A stretch of DNA of 32,000 bases from Candidatus Heimdallarchaeota archaeon B3_Heim (GCA_003144275.1 NJBF01000013.1:55994-87993); one strand, 5' to 3'; numbered from the stretch's first letter, positions 11,592 through 29,332 are shown. Notes: generated from the letters alone by a model not told the origin. Made by a program: numbers and translations.

Positions 11592-12560
11592 TTAACTCTG
11601 TTTGAGGTCACGAGCATTCACACAAAATTCAGGAGCTTCTCCATTTAACACTAGTCGAACCTGTTCTGCAGTTATCCTTCCAGCGCGTTCTTGGGCCTCC
11701 TTAGTGGATGCAGCTACATGAGGAGAGACATAGAGATTGTCTAATTCAAATAATTTGTGTGTTTTGGCTGGTTCGACAGTAAAGACATCTAATGCTGCTC
11801 CAGCGATTTTTCCTTCTTTCAGGGCAACATATAGGGCCTCTTCATCCACAATACCCCCTCGAGCACAATTAACGAGATAAGCAGTAGGCTTCATGAGCTC
11901 AAACTCACGATCACTAACCATTCCACGAGTTTCATCATTGAGTAATGCATGGATTGTAATAAAATCAGATTTTTCAAATAATTCACCAAGATCGGTGATT
12001 TTATCTGCTCCGAATTTTAAGAAAAGTTCTGGAGGAAGATAAGGATCATAGATTAACGGTTTCATTCCAAAAGCGATCGCTCGTACGGCGACTTCAGAGC
12101 CAATCCTACCACAGCCTACAAAACCTAATTTTTTATTAAATAATTCCAACCCCATAAATTCTTTTTTAGGCCATTCACCTTTTTTGGTTTTAATGCTAGC
12201 TTGAACCACTTTACGCCCGAGCGCCAAAATAAGGGCAATTGTCATTTCTGCAACAGAGATTGTAGAAGCACGAGGGGAATTGACAACAAATATTCCTTTT
12301 TTTGTTGCTGTCGCTACATCAATATTGTCCACTCCAACACCTGCTCTTCCAATGACTTTCAATTGAGTACCCGCTTCAAAGACTTCACGGGAAATTTTAG
12401 TGGCACTTCGGACAATTACTGCATCATATTTGCCAATTTCCGATAGTAATTCTGCAGGAGAATAGTGTTGTTCTACAACATCAAATTCTTTTTTTAATTC
12501 CGCTACTGCAGAAGGTGCAATTGAATCTGCGATTAGGATCTTCATCATTACTGGTCTCAT
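11592..12560 (-). CDS. serA: D-3-phosphoglycerate dehydrogenase, short type lacking ACT/ASB domains (D-2-hydroxyacid dehydrogenase family), copy 1
   Basis: VRSATK, GRAGVGVDNID, GCGRIG Rossmann motif, NCARGG (Arg), DVFTVEP (Glu), SPHVAAST.EAQ (His). Confidence 0.85.
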   Translation of the reverse strand: MRPVMMKILIADSIAPSAVAELKKEFDVVEQHYSPAELLSEIGKYDAVIVRSATKISREVFEAGTQLKVIGRAGVGVDNIDVATATKKGIFVVNSPRASTISVAEMTIALILALGRKVVQASIKTKKGEWPKKEFMGLELFNKKLGFVGCGRIGSEVAVRAIAFGMKPLIYDPYLPPELFLKFGADKITDLGELFEKSDFITIHALLNDETRGMVSDREFELMKPTAYLVNCARGGIVDEEALYVALKEGKIAGAALDVFTVEPAKTHKLFELDNLYVSPHVAASTKEAQERAGRITAEQVRLVLNGEAPEFCVNARDLKQS

Positions 12561-12780: not shown

Positions 12781-13752
12781 TCATCCAATAAAGAAAGATT
12801 TTTCTACAATAAAGTCCGGATTAAGCCCCAATAAGGCTTTCCTCACTTGATCGATAATTATTTTTCCAACTCTTTCCTGTGCTTCTGATGTTGAGGCTCC
12901 GATATGGGGAGAAGCATAGAGATTGTCGAGTTCAAGCAACTTGTCATTTGTAGCTGGTTCTTTTGAATAAACATCCAAGGCTGCACCAGCGATTTTTCCT
13001 TCTTTTAGAGCGTCATACAACGCATCCTCATCAATGATACCGCCTCGTGCGCAGTTGATAAGATAAGCTGTTGGTTTCATTAGTTCAAGTTCTCGCTTGC
13101 TAATTAGACCATGAGTTTCTGGTTTCAGATTTGTATGGATAGTTATAAAATCGGAAACACGAAGAAGGTGATCCAGCTCATCAATCCTTTCTACTTCCAT
13201 ACCTTCAGTTGCTTTAGGAGGCAAATTCGGGGAATAAACTAAACATTTCATTCCGAAAACATTTGCTCTGGAGGTCACTTCAACTCCTACTTTTCCACAC
13301 CCAATGCAACCAAGAGTTTTACCATAAAGCTCGGAACGCATTAGTTTTTTCTTCAGTTTTCTTTTCGATTTGGTAGTATTTGCCACATCAACCAACTGAT
13401 TGCAAAGTGCCAACATGAAAGCCATTGTTAGTTCCGCTACAGATACGGAGGATGATCCTGGGGCATTAACAACAAGAATGTCCCTTTCTAATGCGGCTTT
13501 CACATCGATATTATCTACTCCAATACCTGCTCTTCCTATGACCTCCAATTTTCTCCCCTTTTCAATGACTTCACGAGGAACTTTTGTTGCGCTTCGAATT
13601 ATTAAAGCGTTGAATTCACTGATCTCTTCAAGTAATTCCTCAGGTGAGTAGTGCACTTCAACAACTTCAAATTCTTTCCGCAATTCTGCTACCGCAGAGG
13701 GAGCTAATGGGTCTGTTATTAATATTCTCTTTGTAAATTGGGTTGATTGCAC
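12781..13752 (-). CDS. serA: D-3-phosphoglycerate dehydrogenase-like paralogue, copy 2
   Basis: Same motifs: IRSATK, GRAGIGVDNID, GCGKVG, NCARGG, DVYSKEP, SPHIGAST.EAQ. GTG start. Confidence 0.8.
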   Translation of the reverse strand: MQSTQFTKRILITDPLAPSAVAELRKEFEVVEVHYSPEELLEEISEFNALIIRSATKVPREVIEKGRKLEVIGRAGIGVDNIDVKAALERDILVVNAPGSSSVSVAELTMAFMLALCNQLVDVANTTKSKRKLKKKLMRSELYGKTLGCIGCGKVGVEVTSRANVFGMKCLVYSPNLPPKATEGMEVERIDELDHLLRVSDFITIHTNLKPETHGLISKRELELMKPTAYLINCARGGIIDEDALYDALKEGKIAGAALDVYSKEPATNDKLLELDNLYASPHIGASTSEAQERVGKIIIDQVRKALLGLNPDFIVEKSFFIG

Positions 13753-14641: not shown

Positions 14642-14866
14642 TCCTTCATAACGCCTCTATGGAACTAGAAAACGTTCAATCCAAAATCGCTTTTCTTTTT
14701 TTTATTTTAAGAGATGGGATAAATGAAAGATATTAGCCCTGGTTCATTGAAACGTGAAACATCGCTCCAAATAATGAATAAGATCTTTATTCAGTTCATC
14801 CAAAATCTTCTCATTCAGAGTAACCTTTAATAAGAACGTATCTCGAAAGAGAATAAACTCGAATGC

Positions 14867-15622
14867 ATGAAAATATATAGGAATTTGATTTGCGTGCCTC
14901 GTAAATTTGTTGATTATATTACTCCTGATACTAATTCCAATTTACATGCTATTCTTGAAGTTAGTAATCTTCTAGGGTTCTCTCAAATCTGGTTGGGCAG
15001 AGAGTGGAACACCAAACCAGTCGATTTAAACACACTTTCAAGTACTCATTCATTAGATCTCATTAATAGATTAGATATTGACTCCAGTAAGATACCAAAG
15101 GAAAAAATCGTTCAGATTCTCCGAAGAGAAAGAAGAAATTTTCCTATTATATCAGTGAAATGTTTTGATGCCGAAATCGCTGGTTGGGCTGCACAAGACA
15201 ATAGGATAGACATTTTATCATTTCCACCACATCAGATTGGAAAATTATTCACACGATCGATTGCAAAATTAATGATTAAGTTTGTAAAGTACCTTGAAAT
15301 TTCTCTAAGTGAGCTCTATCTATCCCCTGAACGTGTTCAAATTCCTACTTTTCGACATATTCAACAGGCTTTAGAAATTGCCCAGTTGAAATCAGTTCCA
15401 GTAATAATAAATTCTGGTGCTTCTATTCAAAGCAGTCTACGACCCCCTTGGGAATTAGCTTCGCTATCACAAATTCTCTTATCTACAAAAGAGACCCCCT
15501 TAGAATCAATCAGCACTATCCCAACTCAGCTACTCTCTCGTAATCAAGTAAAAATAAGTAACGACTACATAGCTCCTGGAATTTTTAAAGAACCAGAAAT
15601 CTATACTCAGGAGGAAGAATAG
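14867..15622 (+). CDS. rnp3: Ribonuclease P protein component 3 (Rpp30)
   Basis: PHP-like TIM-barrel pattern (AAQDNRIDIL, LEISL, VIINSGA....LRPPWELASL) and conserved position between rpl15e and rnp2. Confidence 0.8.
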   Translation: MKIYRNLICVPRKFVDYITPDTNSNLHAILEVSNLLGFSQIWLGREWNTKPVDLNTLSSTHSLDLINRLDIDSSKIPKEKIVQILRRERRNFPIISVKCFDAEIAGWAAQDNRIDILSFPPHQIGKLFTRSIAKLMIKFVKYLEISLSELYLSPERVQIPTFRHIQQALEIAQLKSVPVIINSGASIQSSLRPPWELASLSQILLSTKETPLESISTIPTQLLSRNQVKISNDYIAPGIFKEPEIYTQEEE

Positions 15623-15623
15623 A

Positions 15624-15992
15624 ATGAAAAAAGAGCGTGTACGTTATTTAACGGTTCGATTCATAGGTCAAAAAGATATTTCCGAGAAAGATGCATGGTT
15701 TATACTGGCTACTGAAATCAAAAGGCTTTTTGGAGTTACTGGAGCCGCAAAAGTAGGGCTATATCTATCGTATTTTGACCCTCAAAATCAAGGAGGAGTT
15801 TTTCGTATGTCACATCAATCTGTTCATTTGATACGAGCGAGCATTTGTTTTGTTCATTCTCATCACTCTCAACCGCTCTATGTTTACTCGGAATATTTAA
15901 CAGGTTCATTAAAAAAGGCTAAAGAATATTTATACAATAAAAACTACCACGATCGATATTATGTTCTTAAAAAGAATCTTGTAGGAAGTTAA
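15624..15992 (+). CDS. rnp2: Ribonuclease P protein component 2 (Pop5/Rpp14)
   Basis: ERVRYL..R, LFG..GAA, GGVFR.SH...IRASI, LTGSLKKAK. Confidence 0.85.
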   Translation: MKKERVRYLTVRFIGQKDISEKDAWFILATEIKRLFGVTGAAKVGLYLSYFDPQNQGGVFRMSHQSVHLIRASICFVHSHHSQPLYVYSEYLTGSLKKAKEYLYNKNYHDRYYVLKKNLVGS

Positions 15993-15997
15993 ATCTA

Positions 15998-16059
15998 GTC
16001 TCAATGATGAGAACTTACCATACGGTATTTGATGACGACACCGTCCCAGTCTGAGAGAC
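15998..16059 (+). ncRNA. Box C/D methylation-guide sRNA, predicted to target the 23S rRNA P-loop (Gm2251) and the helix 71 loop
   Basis: Terminal stem GTCTC (15998-16002)/GAGAC (16055-16059); C box ATGATGA (16004-16010); C' box TTGATGA (16029-16035); D box CTGA (16051-16054). D guide ACCGTCCCAGT (16040-16050) pairs with conserved ACUGGGGCGGU with one G-U, and the D+5 rule points to G2251 (E. coli numbering). D' guide GAACTTACC (16011-16019) is complementary to GGUAAGUUC (E. coli 1949-1957). The D' box is degenerate, possibly CGGT. Confidence 0.85.
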
Positions 16060-16140
16060 CAGAATTGATAGGATTCTTACATTCTAATCCTCTAATCCAG
16101 TTTCGAGCCCTATTACTGTCATTCAACTGGAGAACGGCAA

Positions 16141-17025
16141 TTAGTTGCTTTGTGTGCGTGTTTTTCTTTGAGCACTGAAGCGTTCAAAGTCCTGCACTAT
16201 TAAGTTGGCAATTACTATGAGATGATTGTGTAGTGTCGTATGTCCATGATTCATGGATTCATTCAATAGCTTCAATTCCTTACTTTCATATATATATCTA
16301 TAGAGATTCCAGATATTTGTGTTAGTCACCTCCTGTATGTTCTTGGCTAATTTGATGAAGTTTATTTTTTGTAATGTCCGTTTGGCTTGCCAATTATATC
16401 GACTGATTACGGGAGAGCGAATCTTACGGGTGATACTTGCGGCTAATCGATCATAATATTGAAATTTTCTAATCAATGGGTCATTAGTTTTTTCGTGATG
16501 TTGTTGTAATCGTTTCACTAATGATTGATCTGTTAGTGGGGGTTCTTGATAGATTTTTGATTGATGTTTAGAGGTATGAAAAAAATCATGCAGCAGAGCG
16601 TATTTCAGTAGTTCCTGTTGTTCTATTGAGAGTTTTAATGGTAAACCTTTTCTGATCCTTAATTTTGGGGTTTTTATTTTCACTCGTGAATCTGTTGGTT
16701 TATTTTGGAATGAAATTCTTGTCCATTGAATCTCTCCTAGCCCCTCACCCTGTAATTTTCCTAGATGTGTGAGCTGAAGGAGAGTAATTAATTTGTGTTT
16801 TAGATTTTGCAGCGATTCATGGCGATATTCTAATGTCAGTTTTCCTAAATAACAGATGAATGAATACGGATACATTGGTTTGGCTGTTTGGATTTTTGTG
16901 TAATACCGTCGCCGTGGATTCTGGATCATAGCTTTACATCCGTGAATTTTAAAATGTGTTTTCTTTGTTATTATCGGTGTAATTAGTCGTCCTTCGAGAA
17001 GAAAACCGTTATTTCCAGAATTCAT
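16141..17025 (-). CDS. Cas5-like RAMP fused to a Cas10-type (circularly permuted) HD nuclease
   Basis: N-terminal ~100 aa: strand ITPI and G-rich loop LTHLGKLQGEGLGEIQW. C-terminal: ALLHDFF (H146-D147), QQHHE, YDRLAAS and displaced His motif TTLHNHL (H268). Confidence 0.7.
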   Translation of the reverse strand: MNSGNNGFLLEGRLITPIITKKTHFKIHGCKAMIQNPRRRYYTKIQTAKPMYPYSFICYLGKLTLEYRHESLQNLKHKLITLLQLTHLGKLQGEGLGEIQWTRISFQNKPTDSRVKIKTPKLRIRKGLPLKLSIEQQELLKYALLHDFFHTSKHQSKIYQEPPLTDQSLVKRLQQHHEKTNDPLIRKFQYYDRLAASITRKIRSPVISRYNWQAKRTLQKINFIKLAKNIQEVTNTNIWNLYRYIYESKELKLLNESMNHGHTTLHNHLIVIANLIVQDFERFSAQRKTRTQSN

Positions 17026-17037
17026 CCTTTAATACAC

Positions 17038-17937
17038 CTATTTTGGAGACTCTTGTGATTTTTTTACATATTTTGTCCATTCTGCTATAGAATTCAGAAA
17101 TTCTTGTGATAATGGGGTTTCTGATATTTGCTCTTCTATTTTAAATTCCTGATTATCGCCTAATATCGGTTTGCGGGTCATGATTCTATCAACCAATGTC
17201 AGTGATTGAACTTCGAGTTGGGCATAACCCGCATTGTATCCTCGTCCTAATTTCTGCATATACATTGCTGATTCAATTAGTAATCCAAGTTCCGCAAGTG
17301 AACATTTAGAAACATCAATTTCAAACTCGAATTCTCCTGCAAAGTACCGTTCTCCAAAGTCTTGAATTGCTCCTCCATCATATGATAATGCTACTCGTTT
17401 TTCTGTCGCAATATGGACATTCTGTAACTTATACTTACTTTGAAAGGTTTTTTGACTAATATTAGCTATGGGGTTTGCAGATACTCGTATTTTACTTGTA
17501 TGTCTCTTAGAACCGAACACTGCATGAACAATACACTCGTTCGATTCAGTACAACTTCCTATCAAATGAAAACCATTTGGAAGTAATGATTTACCCTTTC
17601 GATCAGTTTCCTTATCAGATGTATGACATACTTCTAGTCCTCGTTCTTTACAATGATACATTACTTGATGACGTAATGCTCCTCTTAACCCTTTAATGAA
17701 ATACGCAGTTGCTGAGCTTTCCTTATATTCCTTTCCATATTTATATTTATAGGGAAATGTCCATAATTTTAAAAAGTGTGCTTGATTAGATCCTGGAATA
17801 GCACCATTCAAAGGTTTGCAGATTGATGTAAACACTTTAACTTTCAAAATCTTGCTATCAATAGCGATTTGGACATCATCAAGAATCCCAAGCAAAGATT
17901 CAGATTTAAGACTTGATCTAGAAACGCTTTTTGCCAT
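17038..17937 (-). CDS. cas7: Cas7-family RAMP (Csm3/Csf2-like backbone subunit)
   Basis: IKGLRGALRH, Cys cluster ending ECIVHAVFGS, KIRVS, YFAGEFEFEI, ELGLL and C-terminal G-rich loop LGRGYNAGYAQLEV. Confidence 0.8.
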   Translation of the reverse strand: MAKSVSRSSLKSESLLGILDDVQIAIDSKILKVKVFTSICKPLNGAIPGSNQAHFLKLWTFPYKYKYGKEYKESSATAYFIKGLRGALRHQVMYHCKERGLEVCHTSDKETDRKGKSLLPNGFHLIGSCTESNECIVHAVFGSKRHTSKIRVSANPIANISQKTFQSKYKLQNVHIATEKRVALSYDGGAIQDFGERYFAGEFEFEIDVSKCSLAELGLLIESAMYMQKLGRGYNAGYAQLEVQSLTLVDRIMTRKPILGDNQEFKIEEQISETPLSQEFLNSIAEWTKYVKKSQESPK

Positions 17938-18665
17938 TATTTACATGCCTCCTCTTTCTTAGGCTTGTTTGCTGACGAATGCTTTTTCGACTGGACACGA
18001 TAGCAACGCTTTTGGAAAGCTTTCTGTTGAATCGTGGGAGCCAGGTACTTATGATTAGTTTTCAAGTCTTGAGGGACAATGAATAATCGTGTCCTATGAG
18101 GCATAAGGTAAGTAAGCCATTCCTCTGCAGGCATCAATAACCGCTCGTTTGTTGATACTAAGAGGTCTATAAATTGAGCACGGCAAAGATCGATGATCTC
18201 ATAGTGGAGTAAATCAGCGACATAATCCCAAAGCCTAACGCCTTCTAATCCTAAGTGCTCTAAGTGCCTAATAAGAGAGGGAGAATCACAGCCAATATCT
18301 AGTAACACTCTCCGAGGTCTTGGATTTGCTTTCTTACCTTTATATATAGATGAATCAGGAATCTTGTTTTTAATTGTGGAAACTAGAATCCCCCCACGAA
18401 TACTTTTGATCGCTAGAACAGCATTAATGATTGAATGATCAACCCAAAATACAAAAGTATGACGTAAACTACGGGTGGGTTTCGAGAAAAGAAGGCCTTG
18501 ATTTTTCCACGAATGTATTTGCTGAAGAATAGATAGATTTTGAGTAACAATTGAAATCATTTCATTTAAAGAATAATAACCAAGAATCCAATCATTTAAC
18601 TGAAATTGGCATTCATAGAAAGAGGAATTGGGAGAATTAAGCATTTTTCCATCACCAAAGGTCAA
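17937..18665 (-). CDS. Two-domain protein with C-terminal PIN-like (DUF5615/Mut7-C-like) domain
   Basis: VLLDIGC..LIRHLEHLG and EII..C....DLLVSTNERL resemble the DUF5615/Mut7-C pattern, but some acidic residues are substituted. Stop overlaps the cas7 start (TAATG). True start may be ATG at 18644 (GGTGAT upstream). Confidence 0.45.
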   Translation of the reverse strand: MTFGDGKMLNSPNSSFYECQFQLNDWILGYYSLNEMISIVTQNLSILQQIHSWKNQGLLFSKPTRSLRHTFVFWVDHSIINAVLAIKSIRGGILVSTIKNKIPDSSIYKGKKANPRPRRVLLDIGCDSPSLIRHLEHLGLEGVRLWDYVADLLHYEIIDLCRAQFIDLLVSTNERLLMPAEEWLTYLMPHRTRLFIVPQDLKTNHKYLAPTIQQKAFQKRCYRVQSKKHSSANKPKKEEACK

Positions 18666-19123
18666 CGAATCACCTCCTCGGTTTTAGCTGCTAAGGAAAA
18701 ATATCGTTGAAGATGCTCACAAAGTGCCTGTTGAGAAAAAAAGATATGATCCACCGAAGGCATGAGACGAATTAGAGTATAGGTTAGGGGTTCCAGAATA
18801 GGAGAATGAGTTTCGAAAAGGACCCACATTGTGAGAGAAGAATAATGCTTTTTCAATTGAAGACTTTTAGCTTCGAGAGAAACAGCTTTATTGCGAAACG
18901 CAACATAATATTTTTCCATGCTAGAAAAAGAGCACTCTAAGATCGTCTGTTGAGGGAGAAAAAAGTCAACAATATAGTGACGATCAGGTAAAGAAAAAAT
19001 CTTTTGAAATTCAAAGGGGATATTCTCAGAGTGCATTAGTTGTTTTAGTTGTAACTCTTGCCAGGTAGTACAAGAGGAACGAGGAGAAAAATTTTTATTT
19101 ATTTGGGATTCCATACAATACAA
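18662..19123 (-). CDS. PD-(D/E)xK nuclease, DUF559/Vsr-like
   Basis: TWQE.QL..LM....IPFEFQK......YIVDFF.....ILE matches the DUF559/very-short-patch pattern. Stop overlaps or abuts the next ORF. Confidence 0.65.
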   Translation of the reverse strand: MYCMESQINKNFSPRSSCTTWQELQLKQLMHSENIPFEFQKIFSLPDRHYIVDFFLPQQTILECSFSSMEKYYVAFRNKAVSLEAKSLQLKKHYSSLTMWVLFETHSPILEPLTYTLIRLMPSVDHIFFSQQALCEHLQRYFSLAAKTEEVIR

Positions 19124-19130
19124 CTCCGTA

Positions 19131-19171
19131 TTAAATGAATACTAAATAATGCTAGATATATATTCATTTAA
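19131..19171. promoter_or_regulatory. 11-bp perfect inverted repeat in the divergent Cas-module promoter
   Basis: TTAAATGAATA (19131-19141)/TATTCATTTAA (19161-19171), 19-nt spacer, 8 nt upstream of the operon's first ORF. Confidence 0.5.
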
Positions 19172-19350
19172 AAATCTTTAAACCGTCAAGAAGCGCTGGA
19201 TTTCAGTTCATTTGGCTATTGGAAGGTTTTAAAGTGGTTTTATTCGTCTTTAGTGAAAAACGTCAGACCAGTGATAATCTGGTGTAAATCGAATTAATTC
19301 CATCTTAATTCCTAAAAGAACCAGTCAGATAAAACTTCCAAGCAATCTAC

Positions 19351-22341
19351 GTGATCAACATGGCTGTTCAGTTGGAAACAAATAATAATGGATCATTTCT
19401 TTCTTCGTTACTACAAATGGGTCCTCATTTTGAATCGTTTCTTCGTCTGGTATTGAAAACTAGTTCTTTCGTTAGAACTCAGGATGAATTTTCTCTCCAT
19501 GTCCAGTCATTATGGCAGAAGTATTTAGGAAAACTAGTGGATCCAGTTTTTTCAACGAAAATAATTAGATTACTCCGCTTAACTGGCCTTCTCAAGCGTA
19601 AATATTACCAACGATCCGTTCTTGGTACCTTTCTGCTTGCGTACAACCTGAATATTTTTGTTTATCTTCAGGTATTCCATACTGATCTTTCATTCATGCT
19701 TGATAGACATCAAACCCCAAAAGTTTCCTTAAAAAAATTCCAACCTTTATTGTTGTCCTATAGCAAGTGGTACATTAATATATTACAGCATGAGTATTCA
19801 GGATGGAAACTCCAAGTCTTTCAAGATGTTTTCTGTTTAGCATTTGACTGGTATTCCGACAAAGATTGCTTGAAAGCCGCTGTTCGGCCTCTTCTCAAGG
19901 ATCATCTAAAAATACTCTATCAACAGTTTGAGTCAACTCGTAAAGCAAGGAGGAAAACGAGGAGTATCCCTATCCATCAATCAACGAAAGAACCATTTAT
20001 ATTCCCCAAAATTCAACATGGGGAGAGGGGGTTAGTCCTTGTAAAAGTGTTAACTGAAATCTATGATTGGATAACAGCATACACCTCCAAGAAAGATGAG
20101 AATTTTACGAAAAACTATGATCCCCCCTTTTTTGACATTCTCATTCATGCTAAAAAAGCAAGGGTCACATATAGGGATGAGGAGGGAGATATTGACATTG
20201 TTAAAGCAGTTCCTATTCCTCAATATACACGAGCTGTTACGTGGATTCTTAAAAGGGAAATCACCAGGCGAGAGAAAATATTTCTCACTAAAACTGTCTC
20301 TCTACAACAAATCGATAAGCTCGGGATAAAGGCATTAGAACTGATTACCCTCATCCGTAAGCATTTGGTGATGAAGTATATCAAAATCTGTCCTAATAAA
20401 AAACGACGCGTATTGGCATTTAATTTCACAAGTAAACTCATAGATCGACCTCTGGGTCAGCAAAGAAAAATGCTAGATTTTACTTGTGGGTGTTGTAAAT
20501 ACCTTGGAACCTACACGAAAATTGATTGTTTATTCTTTAAGAAACTCGAATACTTGGTTTCACTCGGCTACATCACCATTCCTGACTATTTAAAATCACT
20601 CTACGTAGATCGAATTAAACCGATTTTCTCTACGAAAGTCGCTTGTCCTTTTTTAAAGTTGAAAAAAGACTTTCCACTCCAATTATCAGTCATTAGAGGA
20701 GAGAAATTATCCTGTGCTTTCTGTCAAACTCCTCTGGAGACCGTTCCAGTTTCCAAATCTCCAGTTCTTTGCCAGTGTACCGCTCTGTACTCGTTTATTT
20801 CTTCCAAAATGACAGGAAATAATGTCTATCACTGTCAGTTTACAGATCAACAATTGAATCTTTCAGAACACGGAAAACATGAAATATATATCAATACATT
20901 GGTAGAACAAGACTATAAGCGGATAGAAAAACCTAAACTGAAGAAAGAACAAGTTTTTCAAACTCAAAGTAGCAAAATCAAGCGTTTTTCCAAAAAGCGA
21001 ACTGGTTACATTTACATCCATGAAAGTGATACTATTTATTACGCCCAAGGACAAAAACAACTACTCGTTAATCAAATCGCTTATCACACAGCTTCATTAA
21101 ATCTTGTTGATACCGAGAAATGGAATCTCACTCTACAAAATACTGCAAATAATAATCCCCACTTGGAATTTAATTATCGTCCAGATAACACTAATCTGGC
21201 TAGGGAGGACAAAGTGACTTTAGTCACTGATAGGATACCAATCCTTCAAATTAAACGACCGCGAAAAAAAGAAGTAGAGACCTATCCCCTTCAACAGCTC
21301 CGAACAGTCTATAATGTGGGGAAACCACGCTTAAACAAGGTTTTCAAAAAATGGGGGGTAGAAGTCATTCATTCCTCTGTAAAGGGCGTTTTAAAAGAAC
21401 CCACGGAGGAGATCAAAGAAGCTATGCAGCTTCCAGGAGTGCGACGAACACTCCAACAGCTCCATGTCCAAGGGTTGATGGTCTCGTTAATGAATGCGAC
21501 CTATTATCTGATGAAACTCGCACTCTTATATGAGAAAAAGTGGTTAGCTGATCGTTATCATTACTGGATGAATAACTTACTCTTGCAATGTCCCACAAAG
21601 CTCGAGAATTATTATCAGGATGCATCCGTAAAATCATTCCGACAAGTGTCAGTATTAGAGGCGTGGTTTTCACGGCCATTTGCAGAGGGAGTCCGTAAAT
21701 TTGTGCAGATAATTCAAGATCAGAACCATCCGTTAGTCCAACGTCCTTATGGTCGGGCTGTTGCCCGACGTGTTAATAAAGAGGAAAAACAAGGAGTGGA
21801 TTATATGGGAGGGTATACAGCGTATGATGCCGCATTAAATTGTGTGAATCGGCGGTTAAGACACCAATTACGCATCTGGAATGCGAAAAGAGGGTTAGGG
21901 TTTCACACGATTCCATTGTTTGTGCATACTGCGAAAGACAACCCTGGACGAGCGGGTCATCTGGATCTTGAAGAAGTAGGAAGAATCCTTTCCCGTCTGA
22001 CATTATGTGAAGCAATTGCCGAAGAACAAATCAGTCCCTTCTCTTTTCAACGGCGATATGATGATGATACCCTTCCCTATTATGTACCTAAAGAACAGTT
22101 AATTAGATGGTTACGCGGAGTGCTTGTAAAAAAAGGGATATTTCCAAAAAAGCTATTCTACAACGATCAATGGATGACTTTTGAAAGAGCTCACAAATGG
22201 CATGTTCAGCATCTCTGTTCGTGTCTAGAAAGAGCATTAGACTATACTGATTATACTTCGCGGCGGATGTTTTTGCAAAGCAGCTATCAACCCCTAATCT
22301 TCATACCAGATTTTGCTGAGTTTGAATCACGTGTGGGTTAG
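19351..22341 (+). CDS. cas1: Giant divergent Cas1-family integrase: ~620-aa N-terminal region with Cys clusters plus C-terminal Cas1 domain
   Basis: Cas1 N-lobe YPLQQLRTVYNVG....KWGVEVI...KG (from aa 645). Catalytic-lobe motifs VLEAWFSRPF (E770), YDAALN (N830), GL...LFVH (H859), HLDLEEVGR (D872/E875). Upstream Cys clusters C379-C381-C382-C393 and C455-C458-C474-C476. Start may be ATG at 19360. Confidence 0.78.
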   Translation: MINMAVQLETNNNGSFLSSLLQMGPHFESFLRLVLKTSSFVRTQDEFSLHVQSLWQKYLGKLVDPVFSTKIIRLLRLTGLLKRKYYQRSVLGTFLLAYNLNIFVYLQVFHTDLSFMLDRHQTPKVSLKKFQPLLLSYSKWYINILQHEYSGWKLQVFQDVFCLAFDWYSDKDCLKAAVRPLLKDHLKILYQQFESTRKARRKTRSIPIHQSTKEPFIFPKIQHGERGLVLVKVLTEIYDWITAYTSKKDENFTKNYDPPFFDILIHAKKARVTYRDEEGDIDIVKAVPIPQYTRAVTWILKREITRREKIFLTKTVSLQQIDKLGIKALELITLIRKHLVMKYIKICPNKKRRVLAFNFTSKLIDRPLGQQRKMLDFTCGCCKYLGTYTKIDCLFFKKLEYLVSLGYITIPDYLKSLYVDRIKPIFSTKVACPFLKLKKDFPLQLSVIRGEKLSCAFCQTPLETVPVSKSPVLCQCTALYSFISSKMTGNNVYHCQFTDQQLNLSEHGKHEIYINTLVEQDYKRIEKPKLKKEQVFQTQSSKIKRFSKKRTGYIYIHESDTIYYAQGQKQLLVNQIAYHTASLNLVDTEKWNLTLQNTANNNPHLEFNYRPDNTNLAREDKVTLVTDRIPILQIKRPRKKEVETYPLQQLRTVYNVGKPRLNKVFKKWGVEVIHSSVKGVLKEPTEEIKEAMQLPGVRRTLQQLHVQGLMVSLMNATYYLMKLALLYEKKWLADRYHYWMNNLLLQCPTKLENYYQDASVKSFRQVSVLEAWFSRPFAEGVRKFVQIIQDQNHPLVQRPYGRAVARRVNKEEKQGVDYMGGYTAYDAALNCVNRRLRHQLRIWNAKRGLGFHTIPLFVHTAKDNPGRAGHLDLEEVGRILSRLTLCEAIAEEQISPFSFQRRYDDDTLPYYVPKEQLIRWLRGVLVKKGIFPKKLFYNDQWMTFERAHKWHVQHLCSCLERALDYTDYTSRRMFLQSSYQPLIFIPDFAEFESRVG

Positions 22342-22375
22342 ATATTTTTACAACGAATTCAAAAATAGGGGGAAA

Positions 22376-22405
22376 AAGACCCTTCCTTTTAGGAGGAAGA
22401 GTTTT
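22376..22405. terminator. Hairpin between convergent cas1 and subtilase genes
   Basis: AAGAC-C-CTTCCT/AGGAAG-A-GTTTT stem (about 11 bp, one mismatch, one G-U) with A-run and T-run flanks. Confidence 0.4.
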
Positions 22406-22423
22406 AGGGCTTTATGGAATATT

Positions 22424-24553
22424 TTACCATTCCTTTTTATCCAAAAGAATTCCATTACCAACAAAGACATTGAGGGGGGTAGTAACGATATCATACACCT
22501 CAAATATCCCTGACATGGTGTAAAGATGCCAGATATGGACCCAAGAATGAGTAGGAACATGAAAGATTTCATCGCCAACTTTTAAATCCTGGGGATTAAT
22601 CAGCCATCCACAATAGGTCTCATTACGCATATATATCGGTTGATTAACAGGGGTGACCCTTAATAAACCGTAATCGTGGACGATTATCAGGAGGGAGGAA
22701 ACCGTTGATGATTCTATTTCAGTCACTTGAACAGGTACATCTGTTCCTGACGTCAGGTTATAGCCGAGAACCCAATCACCGAGTTGAAGATTCTGAACGA
22801 ATTTCCACTGATAGCCTTCAGCAAGAGAAATCCGAGTCCACTTGGCAACACATCCACCACCACCGCCGCCACCACCACCACCTGGAATCTCATGATAAGT
22901 AAGTGTATCTTCTTGGTTAATGACGTTATCAGTGGAATCACTGATAATTGTCCACCGAATTTGGATACTATCTCCAGCATTTAGATTGGCAATGGTCAGA
23001 TTAATATCTTCTTCACCAACACTGTAAGGGTCAGTTTGTGTCACATCATATTGCCATGCCCCAGCATTAATTTTATAGTCTACACGAAGAGTGTAATAAT
23101 CCTCCAAAAATATTTTAACTTTTGTTGAAGATGACACAGTATTATTGGTGTAATGTGCTACCGACGTATACTGATGATCTATTTCTCCGCCGAGAAGAAA
23201 TTTAACCCCATCATAGGCATCAATAGTTCCGTAGCCAATTTCTTCGTATTTTGGTGGATTACTGGGGAAAGGTGAATTGGGTGAACATTCAGGGACTGTG
23301 GTTTCATTAATTTCCTCTGCTGCCCTCCATAAGTTATGAAGAATGTCGTTGTAGTCGTTCGATTTCGTCTTATCACGGGCATAATCACAAGTGGCCACTG
23401 CATATGCTACTATCGCGGCAACATGAGGACATGCATAACTTGTGCCGTCTACAACGATGGGATTATAGTTATGATCACGGGTTTCATAGTCATACCCAGG
23501 TGCAACGAATTCTACGGATGAAAAACAGTTTTTTGGAGCTGGACTCGAATTATACATCGACCCCCATTCATTCATTAGACTAAATGAGACTCTCTGTCCA
23601 CTATAATTCATAGCATTACTATTTTCCAATATCTTATCCGCATCATCAAAATGGGCCCCTATCCCCCAGACATTGGTATAGCTTCTTGGGTAGACCATCA
23701 TGTCTTCATGATCATCTTCATTGCTATCATCATAATTCCCTGATGCAGCTAAGCAAATTACACCTTCACTCTTAAGAAAATTGATATATGTTTCAATATC
23801 ATCCCTATTAGATTCGAAATACAACTCGTCATTATCAATTCGAAAACTCATTGATACTATATCTAACTCTGAATGATCTTGATAATGGTCAACTAGCCAC
23901 GCCAATGCCCCTTCCATAACGGTACTTTTCTTCGCATTATAAGCATTAAAAGGATAGGTGTCTAGAATCCAGAATTTAACTCCTGGGGCCGCCTGTGCTA
24001 AGGCCCAGGCAACGGATGAGCCATGTTTTGTTATATCCAGTTCAATGTTTAAATTATCCAGATTATCATTCAATGTCTCATTATCGTAAATGACTGTACT
24101 ATTTTCACACGTATTGCCTCCAGCTTCTACTGGGGTGAATTTAATGTATAGTTCAATCTCACATCCAGTTTCATCTTCAATCTTCCCCCACATTTTCGGC
24201 GAAATACCCGTGTCAATTATGGCGATGACGATATTATTAAGCTCAGAATTGGATTTCCCTAAAAAAGTCTCGTGTTCTGGTCCACTGGTTTGACCCCACC
24301 GTGATTGAACTGAATAATATAGATCTTGGAAAGCAATATTGTTCCACGCTAATGCTTCTTCATCAAGACCATCACCACCAGAATATGACTGCAACCCCGA
24401 AGAGTCCCCAATATAATATCCAGAATACTGACCGACGCAAGCTCTAAATGATAAAATATTAGGTAAAAACATGCCACCTGAAAGGAGGAAGAGGAAAATT
24501 GCAGTAAAGCTATTTTTATTGTTAAAATTAAGGTTCTTTTTTCTTATGTCCAA
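22424..24553 (-). CDS. Secreted S8 (subtilisin-like) peptidase with beta-sandwich domain, poly-Gly linker and C-terminal Hint domain
   Basis: Hydrophobic N-terminal signal; triad IAIIDTG (D114), KHGSSVA (H177), GTSYACPHVAA (S372); oxyanion AASGN. Nine Gly precede C568, which starts CVAKWTRISLAEG...LQLGDWVL...LKVGDEI...VYDI...GNGIL. Confidence 0.85.
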   Translation of the reverse strand: MDIRKKNLNFNNKNSFTAIFLFLLSGGMFLPNILSFRACVGQYSGYYIGDSSGLQSYSGGDGLDEEALAWNNIAFQDLYYSVQSRWGQTSGPEHETFLGKSNSELNNIVIAIIDTGISPKMWGKIEDETGCEIELYIKFTPVEAGGNTCENSTVIYDNETLNDNLDNLNIELDITKHGSSVAWALAQAAPGVKFWILDTYPFNAYNAKKSTVMEGALAWLVDHYQDHSELDIVSMSFRIDNDELYFESNRDDIETYINFLKSEGVICLAASGNYDDSNEDDHEDMMVYPRSYTNVWGIGAHFDDADKILENSNAMNYSGQRVSFSLMNEWGSMYNSSPAPKNCFSSVEFVAPGYDYETRDHNYNPIVVDGTSYACPHVAAIVAYAVATCDYARDKTKSNDYNDILHNLWRAAEEINETTVPECSPNSPFPSNPPKYEEIGYGTIDAYDGVKFLLGGEIDHQYTSVAHYTNNTVSSSTKVKIFLEDYYTLRVDYKINAGAWQYDVTQTDPYSVGEEDINLTIANLNAGDSIQIRWTIISDSTDNVINQEDTLTYHEIPGGGGGGGGGGCVAKWTRISLAEGYQWKFVQNLQLGDWVLGYNLTSGTDVPVQVTEIESSTVSSLLIIVHDYGLLRVTPVNQPIYMRNETYCGWLINPQDLKVGDEIFHVPTHSWVHIWHLYTMSGIFEVYDIVTTPLNVFVGNGILLDKKEW

Positions 24554-26082
24554 ACCCTCAAGAAAATATAATTGGTTTCAGAAAATATTTTAATTAGAGG
24601 GTGGGAACTCTTATAAGTTTTCCTTGTGAGTACAAACGTGAGGATTTGAAGAAAACAACGTGATTTTGGTGATGACGACACGTGTGGAAAAGATTTCCGT
24701 GTATCCCTATAATCAACAAATTTCTCCTAGTTTTACTCATATTGAGTGGAATTTACTCTCCAGTATTGTCAGCTCAGAGTATCCATGACCCAACTCATGG
24801 ATTCTCTAAGTCTGTTTCTCGGGGAGGGACGTCTTCAAGCTCTAATATGAATCTTACTGAGGGGGATATGCTATGGAATCAAACATACGATTATGCAAGA
24901 ACTAAAGATTTAGCCTTTTCCGTCATCGAAACAGCTGACAAAGGGTTGGCTATTGCTGCAAGAGTTTTTTATATAGATGGGGAGATTTGGGATCAGGATG
25001 GCCTCTTAATCAAAACTGATGCTGTTGGAGAAGTGCAATGGACTCAATCGTATGGTGGGAATCGAACGGAATATGCGCGTGATGTCATCCAAACAGCTGA
25101 TGGGGGGTTTGCGATGGCAGGCTCAACCAGTACGAATAGTACAGGGCGGACGGACGGGTGGTTAGTCAAAACCTCATCTGGGGGGGAAGAAGAATGGAGT
25201 CAGCAGTATGCAGGCATTGACTTTGATGACTTTAATGCTTTGATTCAAACCCGAGAGGGCGGGTATGCTCTAGCTGGGCAGCGGAATTTTAACGCGTGGA
25301 TTGTCAAGACTGATCCGAGAGGCAAGAAGGAATGGGCACATACACTTGGAAGAGGCGGATTTGGGAGAGCCCAAGACATTATCCAAACAATGGATAGAGG
25401 ATATTGTGTGGTAGGGTCTTGTGGGAACTTACTTAATTATGATTTATGGGTAATCAAACTAGCTAAGAATGGAACGGTAGAATGGAACCGTACCTATAAT
25501 TCGATACGAGGGAAAACGCCTGATGATCATGGATACTCGGTTATTCAAACCGCGGATAGGGATTTTGTCCTCTTTGGGGATACGGTGAATCTTCATAATG
25601 AGACAGGAACTGATTTTTGGCTTGTCAAAACAGATGCGGCTGGTGTGCCCCTATGGAATCGTACCTATGGAGAGGAGGGAACTGAAAGCTTATATGCAGG
25701 AATTAAAACGATAGATGGAGGATTCGCTTTAACGGGCTATACGAATTCCTTTGGTGTAGAACGCAGTGATTTTTATTTGGTGAAAACGGATGCCCAAGGC
25801 GTGTTGGAATGGAACCGTACATATGGGACATCTTATTGGGAGGAGGCCCGATCTCTTGTCCAGACTTCAGATAGCGGATTCGTCCTAGTTGGTATGTTAC
25901 GTCCCCCAATTGCTGGCTCAACACCGAACACGAACATTTGGTTTGTCAAAGTGAAAGGTCGGGGAGTCCCTCCTTCGTCTACTCCCTCCTTTTGGATCTT
26001 GTTTTTCTTCCCAACAACACTAGTCCTCGGTTGCTTAGTCCTTTTTTTCTCTTCTAAACGCAAACGAAGAATCAATGAATAA
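24467..26082. repeat. Copy 1 of a ~1.6-kb diverged direct duplication
   Basis: Aligns with 29247-30868 (offset about 4780) across the subtilase 5' end, the intergenic region and the whole propeller gene, including a 63-nt exact match (25611-25673 = 30406-30468). Confidence 0.9.
24682..26082 (+). CDS. Membrane-anchored 7-bladed beta-propeller surface protein, copy 1
   Basis: Signal peptide; seven ~50-aa repeats W-x2-TYG...QT.DGG..L.G....WLVKTD..G; many N-x-S/T sequons; Pro/Ser/Thr linker, TPSF, TM helix and KRKRR tail. GTG start with GGTGA SD. Confidence 0.8.
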   Translation: MWKRFPCIPIINKFLLVLLILSGIYSPVLSAQSIHDPTHGFSKSVSRGGTSSSSNMNLTEGDMLWNQTYDYARTKDLAFSVIETADKGLAIAARVFYIDGEIWDQDGLLIKTDAVGEVQWTQSYGGNRTEYARDVIQTADGGFAMAGSTSTNSTGRTDGWLVKTSSGGEEEWSQQYAGIDFDDFNALIQTREGGYALAGQRNFNAWIVKTDPRGKKEWAHTLGRGGFGRAQDIIQTMDRGYCVVGSCGNLLNYDLWVIKLAKNGTVEWNRTYNSIRGKTPDDHGYSVIQTADRDFVLFGDTVNLHNETGTDFWLVKTDAAGVPLWNRTYGEEGTESLYAGIKTIDGGFALTGYTNSFGVERSDFYLVKTDAQGVLEWNRTYGTSYWEEARSLVQTSDSGFVLVGMLRPPIAGSTPNTNIWFVKVKGRGVPPSSTPSFWILFFFPTTLVLGCLVLFFSSKRKRRINE

Positions 26083-26151
26083 AGATCCCCAGAGGTCTTC
26101 ACAAAATTGGTTAATTCACCAAGTTCATAAATTATTCCGCTTTCTTCGAGT

Positions 26152-29133
26152 TTATAATTTGTACGGATCCTCAATGGCGATCAACGATTCCCAGGGATCA
26201 TCAAAGGTGCTAAAGCCAAACAAACCGATCCAACCCTCGTTTTGGGGAGATAACCAATAATTCCTTGCAGAAGGGACACCGAGAGAATATTGTTCCCGGT
26301 TACAAAATCCCTTATGAAGGTGGCCAGACACTATTATGTCATTTATTCGTACTCTTTTCCCTTTCACAGGTTTTGTCAAGTTCTCTCGCCAGTTCTGAAT
26401 CTCCTTTCTAGTGATTCCAGGTTTATCCAGATATAGTTCCATTTTAGAATTATGCCCATGAATAAAGATCAGATCCCGATAAGGTTTGAGAGACCAGCGG
26501 ATGTCTATCGAGGTATTAATGGGTTTTCGCCAACGAAAATACCGGATATCATAATCATGGTTCCCCAAAATAAAAATCGTCTTGTGGAGCAGGCCTAATT
26601 CATCTAATATTTCATAAAGAATGAATAGTTGAGCTCGTGCAACAGTATAATCATAAGCAGCTAATCGATCAATAGTGTCTCCGAGAAAGATGATTACCGA
26701 GGCATTTTTCAGGGGTTTTACTTGAGTATAACAAAACTTTCGAAAATCAACCTCCTGACCGTTGATTGTGATTGGATGGCCAGTTAAATGCAGATCAGCA
26801 ATGCACCCCACAGTGAAATGGTAATCGTTTAGATACTTGTGAAAGCGGTTTTTAGTTTCCTGATAAAGCATTTGTATCGTACCACTTGGTTTTTTCTTCT
26901 TTGTTATCTTTTTTCGAGTCTTTTTTGGCTGTATCCATTGGTGGTACAACATGGATGCTAGATCAAGTCTGCTGGTGTCAATTAGCAGTGTTCCTACCCC
27001 CAGTTCTTCATGATAACAGGTAGTTGATCGAAATACTGACCGATCAATATTAAGTTTGTCACAGTATTGTCGGATTTTCCTTTCCACTGGTACGGTAATC
27101 TTCTTCTTCTTAATAAATATCCCCGTATAATCGCTACTCTGAGCTAGCGGGACATTGGGTAAGTCAAATGATCCAGTTCGGATATCTTTCTTTGTCACTT
27201 GTTCTGTTTCAATGACTTCAACAAGGGCAGCATTAATTTTTAGGTCGTGTGCTAAGATTTCGGTGGCAGTTATCGTTTTTTTAACTTTGTTTTGTATGGC
27301 GTGTAAATCAAGATATCCCTCTATTACATACACGATTTTTTTTGTAGGATCGATTTCAACGATTTGATAAGTATCATCAATAAAAGCGATAGTTTGACTT
27401 GGTAGTCCTCTACGAAATAGTTCCGAGAGACTGATCGTACCGAGTTTCTTCTCTTTCGAAGATTTAGTTCGTAATATGACCGTATAGAGTTCTGTCCCAA
27501 ACCGTCTGGGAAACGCATGAATCCACTCCTTTGTTGTGGCTGTAGGACATATCTGCTCATCCGAACCCACTGTAACGACATGTTCGTTGAGTAGTCTAAG
27601 ATAGGCCTGTTTTACTTCCTGATGAAAGCTTGGGTCATCATTCCCATAAAAACCCTTCTTCAACCGATCTAGAATATCCCAGAACCCGAACACCACTCCC
27701 ATAACAATGGCATACTGCAATATTAACAGAGTATAAAGGGGTGTTTGGAATGGAGGAGGTTCCTCTTGAAAAATAAAGTGTGCTAGAGTGTTAATATCAG
27801 CTGATTTATCGTTTTCAAAACTATTCACTGCCCGTAAGATAATATCAACCTTCCCTTCCTGTGTGGGATCACGATTGGCACGGCCTCGTTGTTGAAGATA
27901 TTCACGGTCACTTCGGGGAATGCCATAGAAAATCACCCAAGAAGCATCAGGGATATCTAGCCCTGACTGAATGATACTGGTAGCGACCAGACAGATTTTA
28001 AGTCGATTACAACGAAAATTATGAATTCTTTTCGCCACGGTGGGAGTAGGCATATCACCATGCACTGTAGTAAAATAGTTAGAAAAAGTACCTAGAAGTG
28101 TTTCAATATCGATATAACGCTTATTATTCAAAAATAAAATGATCTTTCGGGGGACATACTTGTTTCCTGGCGTAATTTTCGCACGTTCCGCTTGAATATA
28201 GGTTTTTACTTCCTGAATAAAATATTCTAAAAGCCTTTGAGGATCATCCTCACGATAGACGTTAATATGAGTGGTTCCTCGTCGTCCCAAGCCCGTTAGA
28301 TCTAGATACTCACTTTCTGGCCCAAAAAACAAGGTGGCAAACCGATCAGGATTACTCACGGTCGCAGAGGAGAGAATCACTTTTATTTCAGGATTTTTCC
28401 AAATTAAGTAACGCACGAAGATCGACAAACAGAGTAACGCTGGAAGCGGATACGAATCGACTTCATCAATCAAGATAATGGCAGGAGAAGAAAGTTTTTT
28501 GGCCCATTGAACATTATGTGTCGAAAACACTTTCCCCCACATATCTCGATCACCCAGCTGATCTAGGACTTCTTGATGTTCGAGCTGGCCCATGAGGGAA
28601 AACTGCGTAAATGACCCTAACAGCATAAAGGGTGTCATAATAAACACAGCTGCGCGGTCCTTGCCCTCACGCACCTGATCTCGAATCAATGCATTCTCTT
28701 CTTCAGTATCCTTATAATAAGCTACAATTTGACGGGTATCACTAAGTCGTCTCATGTACGTAGCGAATTTATCTTTGAGTTCTTCCGCTAAGCCGCGCGT
28801 ATGCGCCAGGACAAAGGCATAAGAATCCTCCTTTAATGTCTCATGAAGAGTATAAACGCACATCGCCTCACTTTTACCACGCGCGGTTTTTCCACGAAGA
28901 ACGTAAAACTGATGACCAGATTTAGCAAGTATTTCATGCTCGATCAAAGGACGACGTTTTTGAAAAAAATCCAGTTCAAGATCGGAAGTGTAACACTCCA
29001 GAAACTCTGAATACGGCGTAGTGGAATAATCCTCCTCGAGAGGTTCAGTACTCTCCAGGATACCTCCCAAAATAGACACAGGAGGAGAACGAACAGCGTG
29101 TTTTCCACGATGTCGGGTAGATCTACTAGCCAT
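26152..29133 (-). CDS. SF2 DEAD/DEAH helicase (MrfA/YprA/Hrq1- or Lhr-like) fused to a C-terminal calcineurin-like metallophosphoesterase
   Basis: Q motif DFFQ, Walker A GKTARGKS, IDEVD, SSAT, ATSIIQSGLDIP, QQRGRANR. C-terminal ADLH (about aa 780), GDTID, GNHD, HGH and SGHLH. Confidence 0.85.
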   Translation of the reverse strand: MASRSTRHRGKHAVRSPPVSILGGILESTEPLEEDYSTTPYSEFLECYTSDLELDFFQKRRPLIEHEILAKSGHQFYVLRGKTARGKSEAMCVYTLHETLKEDSYAFVLAHTRGLAEELKDKFATYMRRLSDTRQIVAYYKDTEEENALIRDQVREGKDRAAVFIMTPFMLLGSFTQFSLMGQLEHQEVLDQLGDRDMWGKVFSTHNVQWAKKLSSPAIILIDEVDSYPLPALLCLSIFVRYLIWKNPEIKVILSSATVSNPDRFATLFFGPESEYLDLTGLGRRGTTHINVYREDDPQRLLEYFIQEVKTYIQAERAKITPGNKYVPRKIILFLNNKRYIDIETLLGTFSNYFTTVHGDMPTPTVAKRIHNFRCNRLKICLVATSIIQSGLDIPDASWVIFYGIPRSDREYLQQRGRANRDPTQEGKVDIILRAVNSFENDKSADINTLAHFIFQEEPPPFQTPLYTLLILQYAIVMGVVFGFWDILDRLKKGFYGNDDPSFHQEVKQAYLRLLNEHVVTVGSDEQICPTATTKEWIHAFPRRFGTELYTVILRTKSSKEKKLGTISLSELFRRGLPSQTIAFIDDTYQIVEIDPTKKIVYVIEGYLDLHAIQNKVKKTITATEILAHDLKINAALVEVIETEQVTKKDIRTGSFDLPNVPLAQSSDYTGIFIKKKKITVPVERKIRQYCDKLNIDRSVFRSTTCYHEELGVGTLLIDTSRLDLASMLYHQWIQPKKTRKKITKKKKPSGTIQMLYQETKNRFHKYLNDYHFTVGCIADLHLTGHPITINGQEVDFRKFCYTQVKPLKNASVIIFLGDTIDRLAAYDYTVARAQLFILYEILDELGLLHKTIFILGNHDYDIRYFRWRKPINTSIDIRWSLKPYRDLIFIHGHNSKMELYLDKPGITRKEIQNWRENLTKPVKGKRVRINDIIVSGHLHKGFCNREQYSLGVPSARNYWLSPQNEGWIGLFGFSTFDDPWESLIAIEDPYKL

Positions 29134-29246
29134 TGTCCTTCACTTCCTATGGTTCATCCACCTTTTATATTCAGAATCGCACAACAGTGATCACATCCAA
29201 TGTAAGGAGAAAAAGAAAAATCATAAAAAATGTGAAAAGACTAATT

Positions 29247-29332
29247 AAACATACAACCCGAATGGAAGAAGAGGATTAGAACAGTAAAGCTATCTTTATT
29301 GATGTACATTAGTTTCTTATTCTCATGTCCAG
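29247..29332 (-). pseudogene. Frameshifted relic of the 5' (signal-peptide) end of the subtilase gene
   Basis: Homologous to 24467-24553. Start TTG is now CTG, and a 1-nt deletion gives TAA at 29309-29311. The shifted frame reads INKDSFTVLILFFHSGCMF versus NNKNSFTAIFLFLLSGGMF. Confidence 0.75.

Follow-up and report, generated by a model that had tools for sequence, protein, structure and literature searches.

The ARAMP cassette, its proteins and its second copy

We analyzed a 32,000-nucleotide (nt) stretch of DNA from Candidatus Heimdallarchaeota archaeon B3_Heim (the window; all positions are counted in the whole stretch), and we focused on a cassette in which an operon of four genes, including cas7-like and cas5-like genes, is divergent from a gene for a giant Cas1-like protein. 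This piece of chromosome belongs to a Heimdall-group (Hodarchaeales-like) Asgard archaeon, whose assembly of 3.95 Mb in 103 contigs is 94% complete, and the flanking housekeeping genes are archaeal (ribosomal L15e, RNase P p30, Pop5, NFACT and an Obg-like GTPase). A preliminary description of the window had suggested that the locus may fall within a derived Cas1/Cas5/Cas7 class of Asgard archaea (Makarova et al. 2020), which is the class catalogued computationally in Makarova 2020 (CRISPR J 3:156) that the available sections of PMC8730458 and PMC12669027 name ARAMP. As these sections describe it, ARAMP has Cas5, Cas7 and a distinct Cas1, is array-less and is derived from type III systems. We conclude that the locus is a real, apparently intact ARAMP cassette, and because the class has already been named, the locus is not a new kind. 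Its features and those of its surroundings are as follows.

15998-16059, plus strand: C/D-box small RNA (sRNA)-like sequence after Pop5, the conserved left flank (sequence read)
16059-16145, with a 5' extension to about 16190, minus strand: structured RNA-like element directly 3' of the Cas5-HD gene (covariance model)
16059-31151, no strand: 15.1-kb segment absent from the related genome G063 (genome comparison)
16141-17025, minus strand: gene for a Cas5-like RAMP protein with a Cas10-type HD domain, 294 amino acids (aa) (alignment, model, structure searches)
17038-17937, minus strand: gene for a Csm3-like Cas7 (RAMP), 299 aa (Pfam, PADLOC and PDB profile matches)
17937-18665, minus strand: gene for a conserved ARAMP-specific protein without a known fold, 242 aa (66 homologues, no fold relative)
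18662-19123, minus strand: gene for a PD-(D/E)xK-fold nuclease-like protein, 153 aa (Atlas model, synteny)
19124-19350, no strand: divergent intergenic region between the four-gene operon and the Cas1-like gene (sequence read)
19351-22341, plus strand: gene for the giant Cas1-like protein, 996 aa (fold of the C-terminal ~390 aa)
26152-29133, minus strand: gene for a superfamily 2 (SF2) helicase-metallophosphoesterase, 993 aa, convergent with the Cas1-like gene (Pfam, synteny, motifs)

The minus-strand genes are joined by a TTGA stop/start overlap, a TAATG overlap and a 12-nt gap, and a GGAGG-like site precedes each of them. The open reading frames (ORFs) lie exactly where they had first been placed, and the earlier view of a translationally coupled four-gene operon facing the 996-aa gene stands. 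Both promoters presumably lie in the divergent intergenic region.

The 299-aa protein passed the threshold for the Pfam RAMP family (PF03787, E 1.3e-4) and matched Csm3 in PADLOC (E 1.2e-5). A profile of its family (ten members) returned from the PDB only Cas7 proteins of the type III lineage (Cas7-11, 5e-7; type VII Cas7, 2e-4; Csm3, 4e-3). The 294-aa protein, modelled from 41 homologues with a predicted local distance difference test score (pLDDT) of 89.8, has two domains. Residues 2-116 have a RAMP fold (Z 8.1-8.4 to type III-B, III-A and IV-A effector subunits), and residues 133-288 align with the N-terminal HD domain of Csm1/Cas10 (6ifk_A residues 2-221, Z 7.4 over 142 residues at 17% identity; 6mua_A, Z 6.7). 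In the alignment of homologues, H146, H154, H176, H177 and H268 are invariant and D147 is nearly so. The simplest reading is that a Cas10 has been cut down to its HD domain and joined to its usual partner Cas5. This Csm1-like HD domain, fused to a RAMP, is all that was seen of Cas10; the palm and cyclase domains were not seen, and no dedicated genome search for Cas10 was made. The two proteins had been called Cas7-like and Cas5-like-HD before, and the profile matches of the first and the structure search with the model of the second (RAMP fold at Z 8.4, Csm1 HD at Z 7.4) bear out the name of the first and the RAMP-HD architecture of the second.

The predicted PD-(D/E)xK fold of the 153-aa protein comes from an Atlas model with a predicted template modelling (TM) score of 0.77, which compares at TM 0.59-0.68 with DpnII, Mrr, DUF559 and endonuclease-I clusters and supports the earlier assignment of a PD-(D/E)xK nuclease gene. 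Its relatives in other loci are longer (231-247 aa). No HNH nuclease was seen. The 242-aa protein has 66 homologues with a mean column identity of 63%, the named ones from metagenome-assembled genomes (MAGs) of Asgard archaea, and it carries a basic patch, KGKK..PRPRR. Because searches of Pfam, PDB profiles and the Atlas returned no relative of this protein, the label "PIN-like" that it had been given is unsupported.

Searches of the 996-aa protein with Pfam, NCBIfam, PADLOC, PHROGs, phmmer and a profile against the PDB gave no Cas1 sequence signal. PF01867 was matched neither by this protein in hmmscan nor in the genome at E up to 10, and a comparison with canonical Asgard Cas1 by hhalign gave a probability of 1.8%. 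Since all sequence searches failed, the identification as Cas1 is by fold. The last 394 residues were modelled from 25 homologues (pLDDT 85.5), and the model is a complete two-domain Cas1 with a beta N-domain and an alpha-helical catalytic domain (Foldseek E 3e-9, more than 50 matches). Residues 8-383 of the model align with A. fulgidus Cas1 (4n06_A) at a VIA Z of 21.4, with 319 of 346 residues aligned, and the model matches a casposase at Z 20.9 with a root-mean-square deviation of 2.8 A. At Z of at least 8 there were 134 chains, and all 50 entries among those listed are Cas1-family integrases, casposase included. The Cas1 domain therefore occupies the C-terminal ~390 aa (about 21157-22341), as a Cas1-domain protein of 996 aa had been proposed, and the structure searches returned both the RAMP and the Cas1 folds that had been expected. 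In the 25 sequences E770, H859, D872, E874 and E875 (996-aa ORF numbering) are invariant, and the E, H and D-L-E-E motif, a candidate catalytic set, come in the order and spacing expected of Cas1. The N-terminal ~600 residues have eight conserved Cys and no family match. We also considered a helicase-Cas1 fusion in the long Cas1-like forms (1161-1438 aa); these forms show no Pfam domain, and thus Pfam does not support the fusion.

No CRISPR array, tRNA or Rfam match was found in the window, and Pfam annotation of its ORFs of at least 100 aa returned no polB and no Tn7 genes (TnsA/B/C, TniQ). A scan of the whole assembly found no array either, in a MAG of 103 contigs, in which arrays often fail to assemble. 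The sole CRISPR-like candidate (contig C93:6725-7170, 69-nt period) is a coding leucine-rich repeat. Pfam searches of the genome for Cas1, Cas2 (PF09827), Cas4 and Cas6 gave no match. The window had been said to lack an array, cas2, cas4, cas6, polB and Tn7 genes, and these searches agree, also for arrays and cas6 elsewhere in the assembly.

The only other RAMP match in the genome is the Cas7 of a second complete ARAMP cassette (contig C38:453-7805), which has the same gene order at 31-50% identity: a 1339-aa Cas1-like gene, genes of 237, 244, 277 and 279 aa, and an RNA element (75.8 bits). This cassette was not in the preliminary description, nor were the structured RNA or the helicase-phosphoesterase at 26152-29133, to which we return below. 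A conserved gene of ~305 aa and no known family follows the RNA on C38 and in genome G068, and for genes that accompany the cassette elsewhere (about 200, 480 and 305 aa) Pfam returned no family.

These searches bear on the possibility that the RAMP proteins use CRISPR RNAs (crRNAs) in trans from a canonical CRISPR locus, as had been proposed for this cassette, or that the genes are what is left of such a locus as it decays. Canonical Cas1 occurs often in the phylum, in 53 of the 151 genomes sampled, and one congener, G070, has both canonical Cas1 and ARAMP. In the genome studied here, however, neither an array nor a canonical cas gene was found to supply guides, and all genes of the cassette are intact and duplicated as a complete set. 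Because the only other RAMP match is a paralogous ARAMP Cas7 in that second set, no canonical locus is at hand of which these genes could be fragments. We consider both forms of this explanation highly improbable.

A structured RNA-like element downstream of the cas5-like gene

Many loci of the genus carry a conserved RNA-like element of ~100-150 nt just past the stop codon of the cas5-like gene. In single-sequence folds its copies share one architecture: an outer helix P0, two CC/GG base pairs, a 10-bp P1, a 3-bp P2 with an AGAAGG loop, a variable hairpin P3 and a ATCCTTAA tail. Because a MAFFT alignment put the variable stems out of register, RNAalifold on it recovered only the small P2 hairpin; in its place we derived the structure by hand and built a covariance model, R1, from five copies. 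The model found 30 copies in 14 of 22 congeneric genomes, and it also found two in the source genome, on contigs C38 and C41. In 33 aligned copies 93.0% of cells pair, as against 30-41% when the partners are slid by one to three columns. Compensatory changes on both sides occur in 18 of the 20 pairs, double changes amount to 150 cells compared with 23-32 in the slid controls, and the observed covariation values were matched by none of 500 shuffles.

The element follows the gene closely. Of the 32 copies outside the window, 25 sit 0-38 nt (one 179 nt) after a same-strand cas5-like gene or a 3' stub of one, and seven are solo. The conserved region runs 5' into the end of the coding sequence, where it adds a TGCAC box and another hairpin, whose sequence varies. 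In the phylum sample the RNA occurs only in this genus and in one distant genus that holds the closest cas5-like gene, and it accompanies the cassette into a distant family (G307, G304). A decayed remnant on C41 (3943-4209) keeps ~50 codons from the 3' end of a cas5-like gene, with a stop in frame, and after these an intact-looking RNA (58 bits). Gene stubs with RNA of this kind are common across the genus.

The window copy (16050-16145, minus strand) is of a divergent subtype, scoring 21.9 bits with an E of 0.04-0.07 in the loci searched. Its P0 is CTAAT/ATTAG, its tail is AATCCTAT, and it forms 17 of the 20 consensus pairs. Its conserved 5' extension, with a hairpin and a GCAC box, enters the end of the coding sequence as far as about 16190. 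In the more distant ARAMP copies of G307 and G308 (L064, L065, L066, L072), the cas5-like genes precede a different conserved non-coding element with GTTCTTGTGCATGAGACTGAACC and AGAGGTCCGACGCCTC, and each ARAMP subtype may have its own companion RNA. Canonical Asgard repeats and the element also have short motifs in common (GTTGCA and the TGCAC box; AATTCCTTAAG and the AATCCTTAAG tail); because these matches are too short to test, a likeness between repeat and element stays an idea only.

The element could instead be no partner of the effector. It might be a cis element (3' untranslated region, terminator or stabiliser) or a CreTA-type addiction module, with proteins that use no RNA guide. Its place at the 3' end of the operon, its start inside the end of the coding sequence and its high degree of pairing without a long free stretch would suit such a role, as would the expectation in reviews that ARAMP and HRAMP mechanisms are distinct from CRISPR. 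Against this, seven copies have been kept where no cas5 remnant could be detected, and many others stand next to short stubs of genes. A plain terminator is unlikely, because the terminator of a dead gene would not be retained. In addition, four covarying helices, a conserved AGAAGG loop and conserved single-stranded joints exceed what a terminator needs. Weighing these points, we regard a cis-acting or addiction RNA as quite unlikely.

A helicase-phosphoesterase gene and a 15.1-kb insertion polymorphism

Downstream of the Cas1-like gene lies the 993-aa SF2 helicase, which by Pfam is fused to a C-terminal metallophosphoesterase and has all helicase and phosphoesterase motifs intact. PADLOC gave it only generic SF2 matches (DpdF, PsyrT, Cas3c). 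Between it and the Cas1-like gene, the window has a gene for a subtilase and a beta-propeller-like one. A homologue of the helicase lies within 10 kb of the Cas1-like gene in all eight related loci with enough flank. In G059:C138 the two genes are direct neighbours and convergent, and in two G397 loci they are co-directional, with an overlapping stop/start. The G397 helicases carry WH_Lhr and MrfA Zn-binding domains in place of the phosphoesterase.

The cassette and the helicase gene belong to a segment that is variable among close relatives. In G063, at about 96% nucleotide identity, window positions 14813-16058 are joined to 31152-31869 through 36 unrelated bases, and the 15.1 kb between these parts is thus found here and missing there. 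In G060 and G061, too, Pop5 stands next to the MarR gene, so that three close relatives lack the segment in all and a gain in the source lineage is the simpler history. Comparison of occupied and empty sites, which had been put forward as a check on the locus, thus returned a presence/absence difference. We found no terminal inverted repeats joining the ends of the segment; the junctions share only a 7-nt imperfect direct repeat, AGAATTG, and there is no clear target duplication.

The segment begins right at the 3' end of the C/D-box sRNA-like sequence, and the empty junction in G063 is at the same base. The sRNA-like sequence starts 6 nt after the Pop5 stop and has a terminal stem GTCTC/GAGAC, a C box AATGATGA, a C' box TGATGA and a D box CTGA. 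It has no Rfam match, and the conservation of its DNA extends across species in which Rpp30 identity is down to 45-50%. The sequence marks the site and lies outside the cassette. The end of the ARAMP RNA abuts this flank in the window, in G075 and in G059:C476, where the copies in G075 and G059:C476 are solo, and the orthologous cassette of G062 is at a different site.

The remaining content of the segment consists of the subtilase gene (22424-24553, minus strand) and two paralogous beta-propeller-like genes (24682-26082 and 29462-30868). The probable start of the subtilase ORF is an ATG near 24473 rather than the TTG at 24553; sequence upstream of that ATG belongs to a duplicated promoter segment. 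A diverged direct duplication of ~1.6 kb (24467-26083 and 29247-30881, 71-85% identity) brackets the helicase gene, and each duplicate holds a promoter region and a ~466-aa gene, one of which has a weak SBBP beta-propeller match. On the left side of the window, two tandem paralogous D-2-hydroxyacid dehydrogenase genes (11592-12560 and 12781-13752, minus strand) lie upstream of the L15e gene.

Could the cassette be a mobile element in its own right? The giant Cas1 would then be a Cas2-independent, casposase-like integrase that inserts the cassette at specific sites, for example the 3' end of a gene for a small RNA, with a RAMP-RNA particle or the helicase-nuclease aiding target choice or processing, in a Cas1-based counterpart of CRISPR-associated transposons. 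The empty sites, the shared sRNA-like flank in three genomes and the other position in G062 are what such an element would leave behind. Genomes also hold up to nine cas5-like copies and many 3'-terminal remnants, and the nearest cas5-like gene with RNA outside the genus belongs to a different family, G307. The Cas1 domain fits casposase as well as it fits CRISPR Cas1 (Z 20.9, 2.8 A), and no cas2 was found.

Several observations fit this poorly, however. The ends have neither inverted repeats nor more than the 7-nt repeat, the 36 unrelated bases mean that the G063 junction is not clean, and the segment carries unrelated cargo and the internal 1.6-kb duplication. The RNA forms no fixed terminus, with further genes following it in other loci, and no polB or Tn7 genes are in the window. 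The three occurrences at one site may reflect a single inheritance followed by decay. Finally, because Cas5-like modules are far commoner than Cas1-like ones (38 versus 15 of 400 genomes), most cas5-like copies could not move by Cas1 in cis. A Cas1-driven mobile element was the first option of the preliminary description: the polymorphism, the recurrent flank, the different positions and the several copies and many decayed remnants per genome lend it some support, whereas the inverted repeats, clear target duplication and polB or Tn7 genes of such an element are missing. We think a self-mobile cassette unlikely.

A proposed RNA-scaffolded system and its relation to known systems

We favor a reading in which the locus is an RNA-scaffolded, array-less, type III-derived conflict system on a horizontally moving island, and we give it a probability of about 0.55. 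The four-gene operon and the RNA would be transcribed together, and Cas7 and Cas5-HD, possibly with the 242-aa protein, would assemble on this one RNA from the cassette, in place of array-derived crRNAs. The particle would recognise nucleic acid and recruit the HD, PD-(D/E)xK and helicase-phosphoesterase nucleases, the last of these in the role that Cas3 plays in type I. Cas1 might capture DNA or insert it at a fixed site without Cas2, in the manner of a casposase. Such a system would act in conflict with viruses or other mobile elements, and the island would carry it horizontally. The catalytic-type residues that are invariant across families, the intact helicase and phosphoesterase motifs and the second complete cassette support this reading. 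Its patchy distribution (Cas1-like protein in 15 and Cas5-like in 38 of 400 genomes) is typical of conflict systems. The data are also compatible with the non-programmable nuclease or defence system that had been listed among the first proposals.

Other points weigh against this RNA-scaffolded conflict system. The window copy of the element is a weak match at 21.9 bits and is without the P3 3' hairpin, and the element is nearly all base-paired, with no obvious long single-stranded guide. Its transcription and its binding by the proteins are predictions from sequence. The alignment used for covariation was fitted to the model, which favors the structure; we argue that the effect is real nonetheless, as the margin over the slid controls is large and the stems are fully different between copies. 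A second helicase copy (82% aa identity) lies on contig C103 (7.8 kb) with no ARAMP gene in view, which weakens the link between helicase and cassette a little and does not break it. The Cas5 label of the 294-aa protein comes from a modelled RAMP fold at Z ~8, gene position, the HD fusion and the literature, and these do not separate Cas5 from other RAMPs. The case for defence draws entirely on composition and patchiness. Lastly, novelty is set only by later descriptions of ARAMP: the structured RNA, the helicase-phosphoesterase and the insertion polymorphism go unmentioned in the available sections of PMC8730458 and PMC12669027.

A more specific proposal is tentative and, in our view, doubtful. 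Each ARAMP cassette might encode one fixed structured RNA, possibly a descendant of a CRISPR repeat, in place of an array; this RNA would organise Cas7 and Cas5-HD, and a Cas2-less Cas1 and the helicase-nuclease would place the cassette, or capture DNA, at the 3' ends of small RNAs. If true, ARAMP would be an offshoot of type III CRISPR that works with a single RNA, is linked to Cas1 and acts in a way that has yet to be described. ARAMP is among the least understood derivatives of CRISPR, in that the crRNA-binding backbone and the integrase have been kept and the array is gone. In the sections available, reviews call its mechanism enigmatic and expect ARAMP and HRAMP to act by non-CRISPR mechanisms, and we found no experiment on ARAMP in the literature searched. 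The covarying RNA encoded by the cassette is a concrete candidate for the missing RNA component, the helicase-nuclease is a candidate effector, and the pair of occupied and empty sites offers a way to test mobility. The open question of ARAMP is thereby reduced to a few bench experiments, with possible insight into the reuse of CRISPR parts in the archaea closest to eukaryotes.

Among known systems, the type III Csm/Cmr effectors resemble the locus in their Csm3-like Cas7, in a RAMP partner and in a Cas10-type HD domain (Z 7.4 to residues 2-221 of Csm1). They differ from it in that no Cas10 palm or cyclase domain (for which no dedicated Cas10 search was made), Cas11, Cas6 or array was found here, and in that the HD domain is on a RAMP and not on Cas10. 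Casposons (casposase, for example PDB 6opm) share a Cas1-fold integrase without Cas2 and possibly a site-specific placement by a small RNA gene. The locus differs from them in lacking PolB, terminal inverted repeats and a clear target duplication, and in the 600-aa N-terminal region of its Cas1. The helicase is like SF2 helicases of the Lhr/MrfA type in its DEAD/Helicase_C core, and its G397 relatives carry the WH_Lhr and MrfA Zn-binding domains. It is also like Cas3, as a functional analogue, in joining a helicase to a nuclease, here a metallophosphoesterase at the C-terminus and not HD; its link with the Cas1 and RAMP genes is by synteny.

HRAMP, reportedly the subject of Makarova et al. 2019 in FEMS Microbiol Lett, is a further relative. 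In the available sections of PMC8730458 it has array-less Cas5 and Cas7, extra nucleases and uncharacterised proteins, with a predicted non-CRISPR-like defence, all of which resemble the locus; in contrast, it is described without Cas1 and in Haloarchaea, and it is distant in sequence. Those of PMC12669027 group HRAMP with ARAMP as array-less type III-derived systems with HNH and PD-(D/E)xK nucleases. With ARAMP itself, no tested feature of the locus conflicts. The host is an Asgard archaeon, and the named homologues come from Hodarchaeales, Thor-, Heimdall-, Hermod- and Promethearchaeota MAGs. The 299-aa and 294-aa proteins are the diverged Cas7 and Cas5 of type III affinity, both the window and the whole assembly are without a detected array, and the Cas1 is distinct and so diverged that its fold (Z 21.4) comes without sequence signal. 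The associated nucleases of the class are represented by the PD-(D/E)xK fold of the 153-aa protein and by the HD domain.

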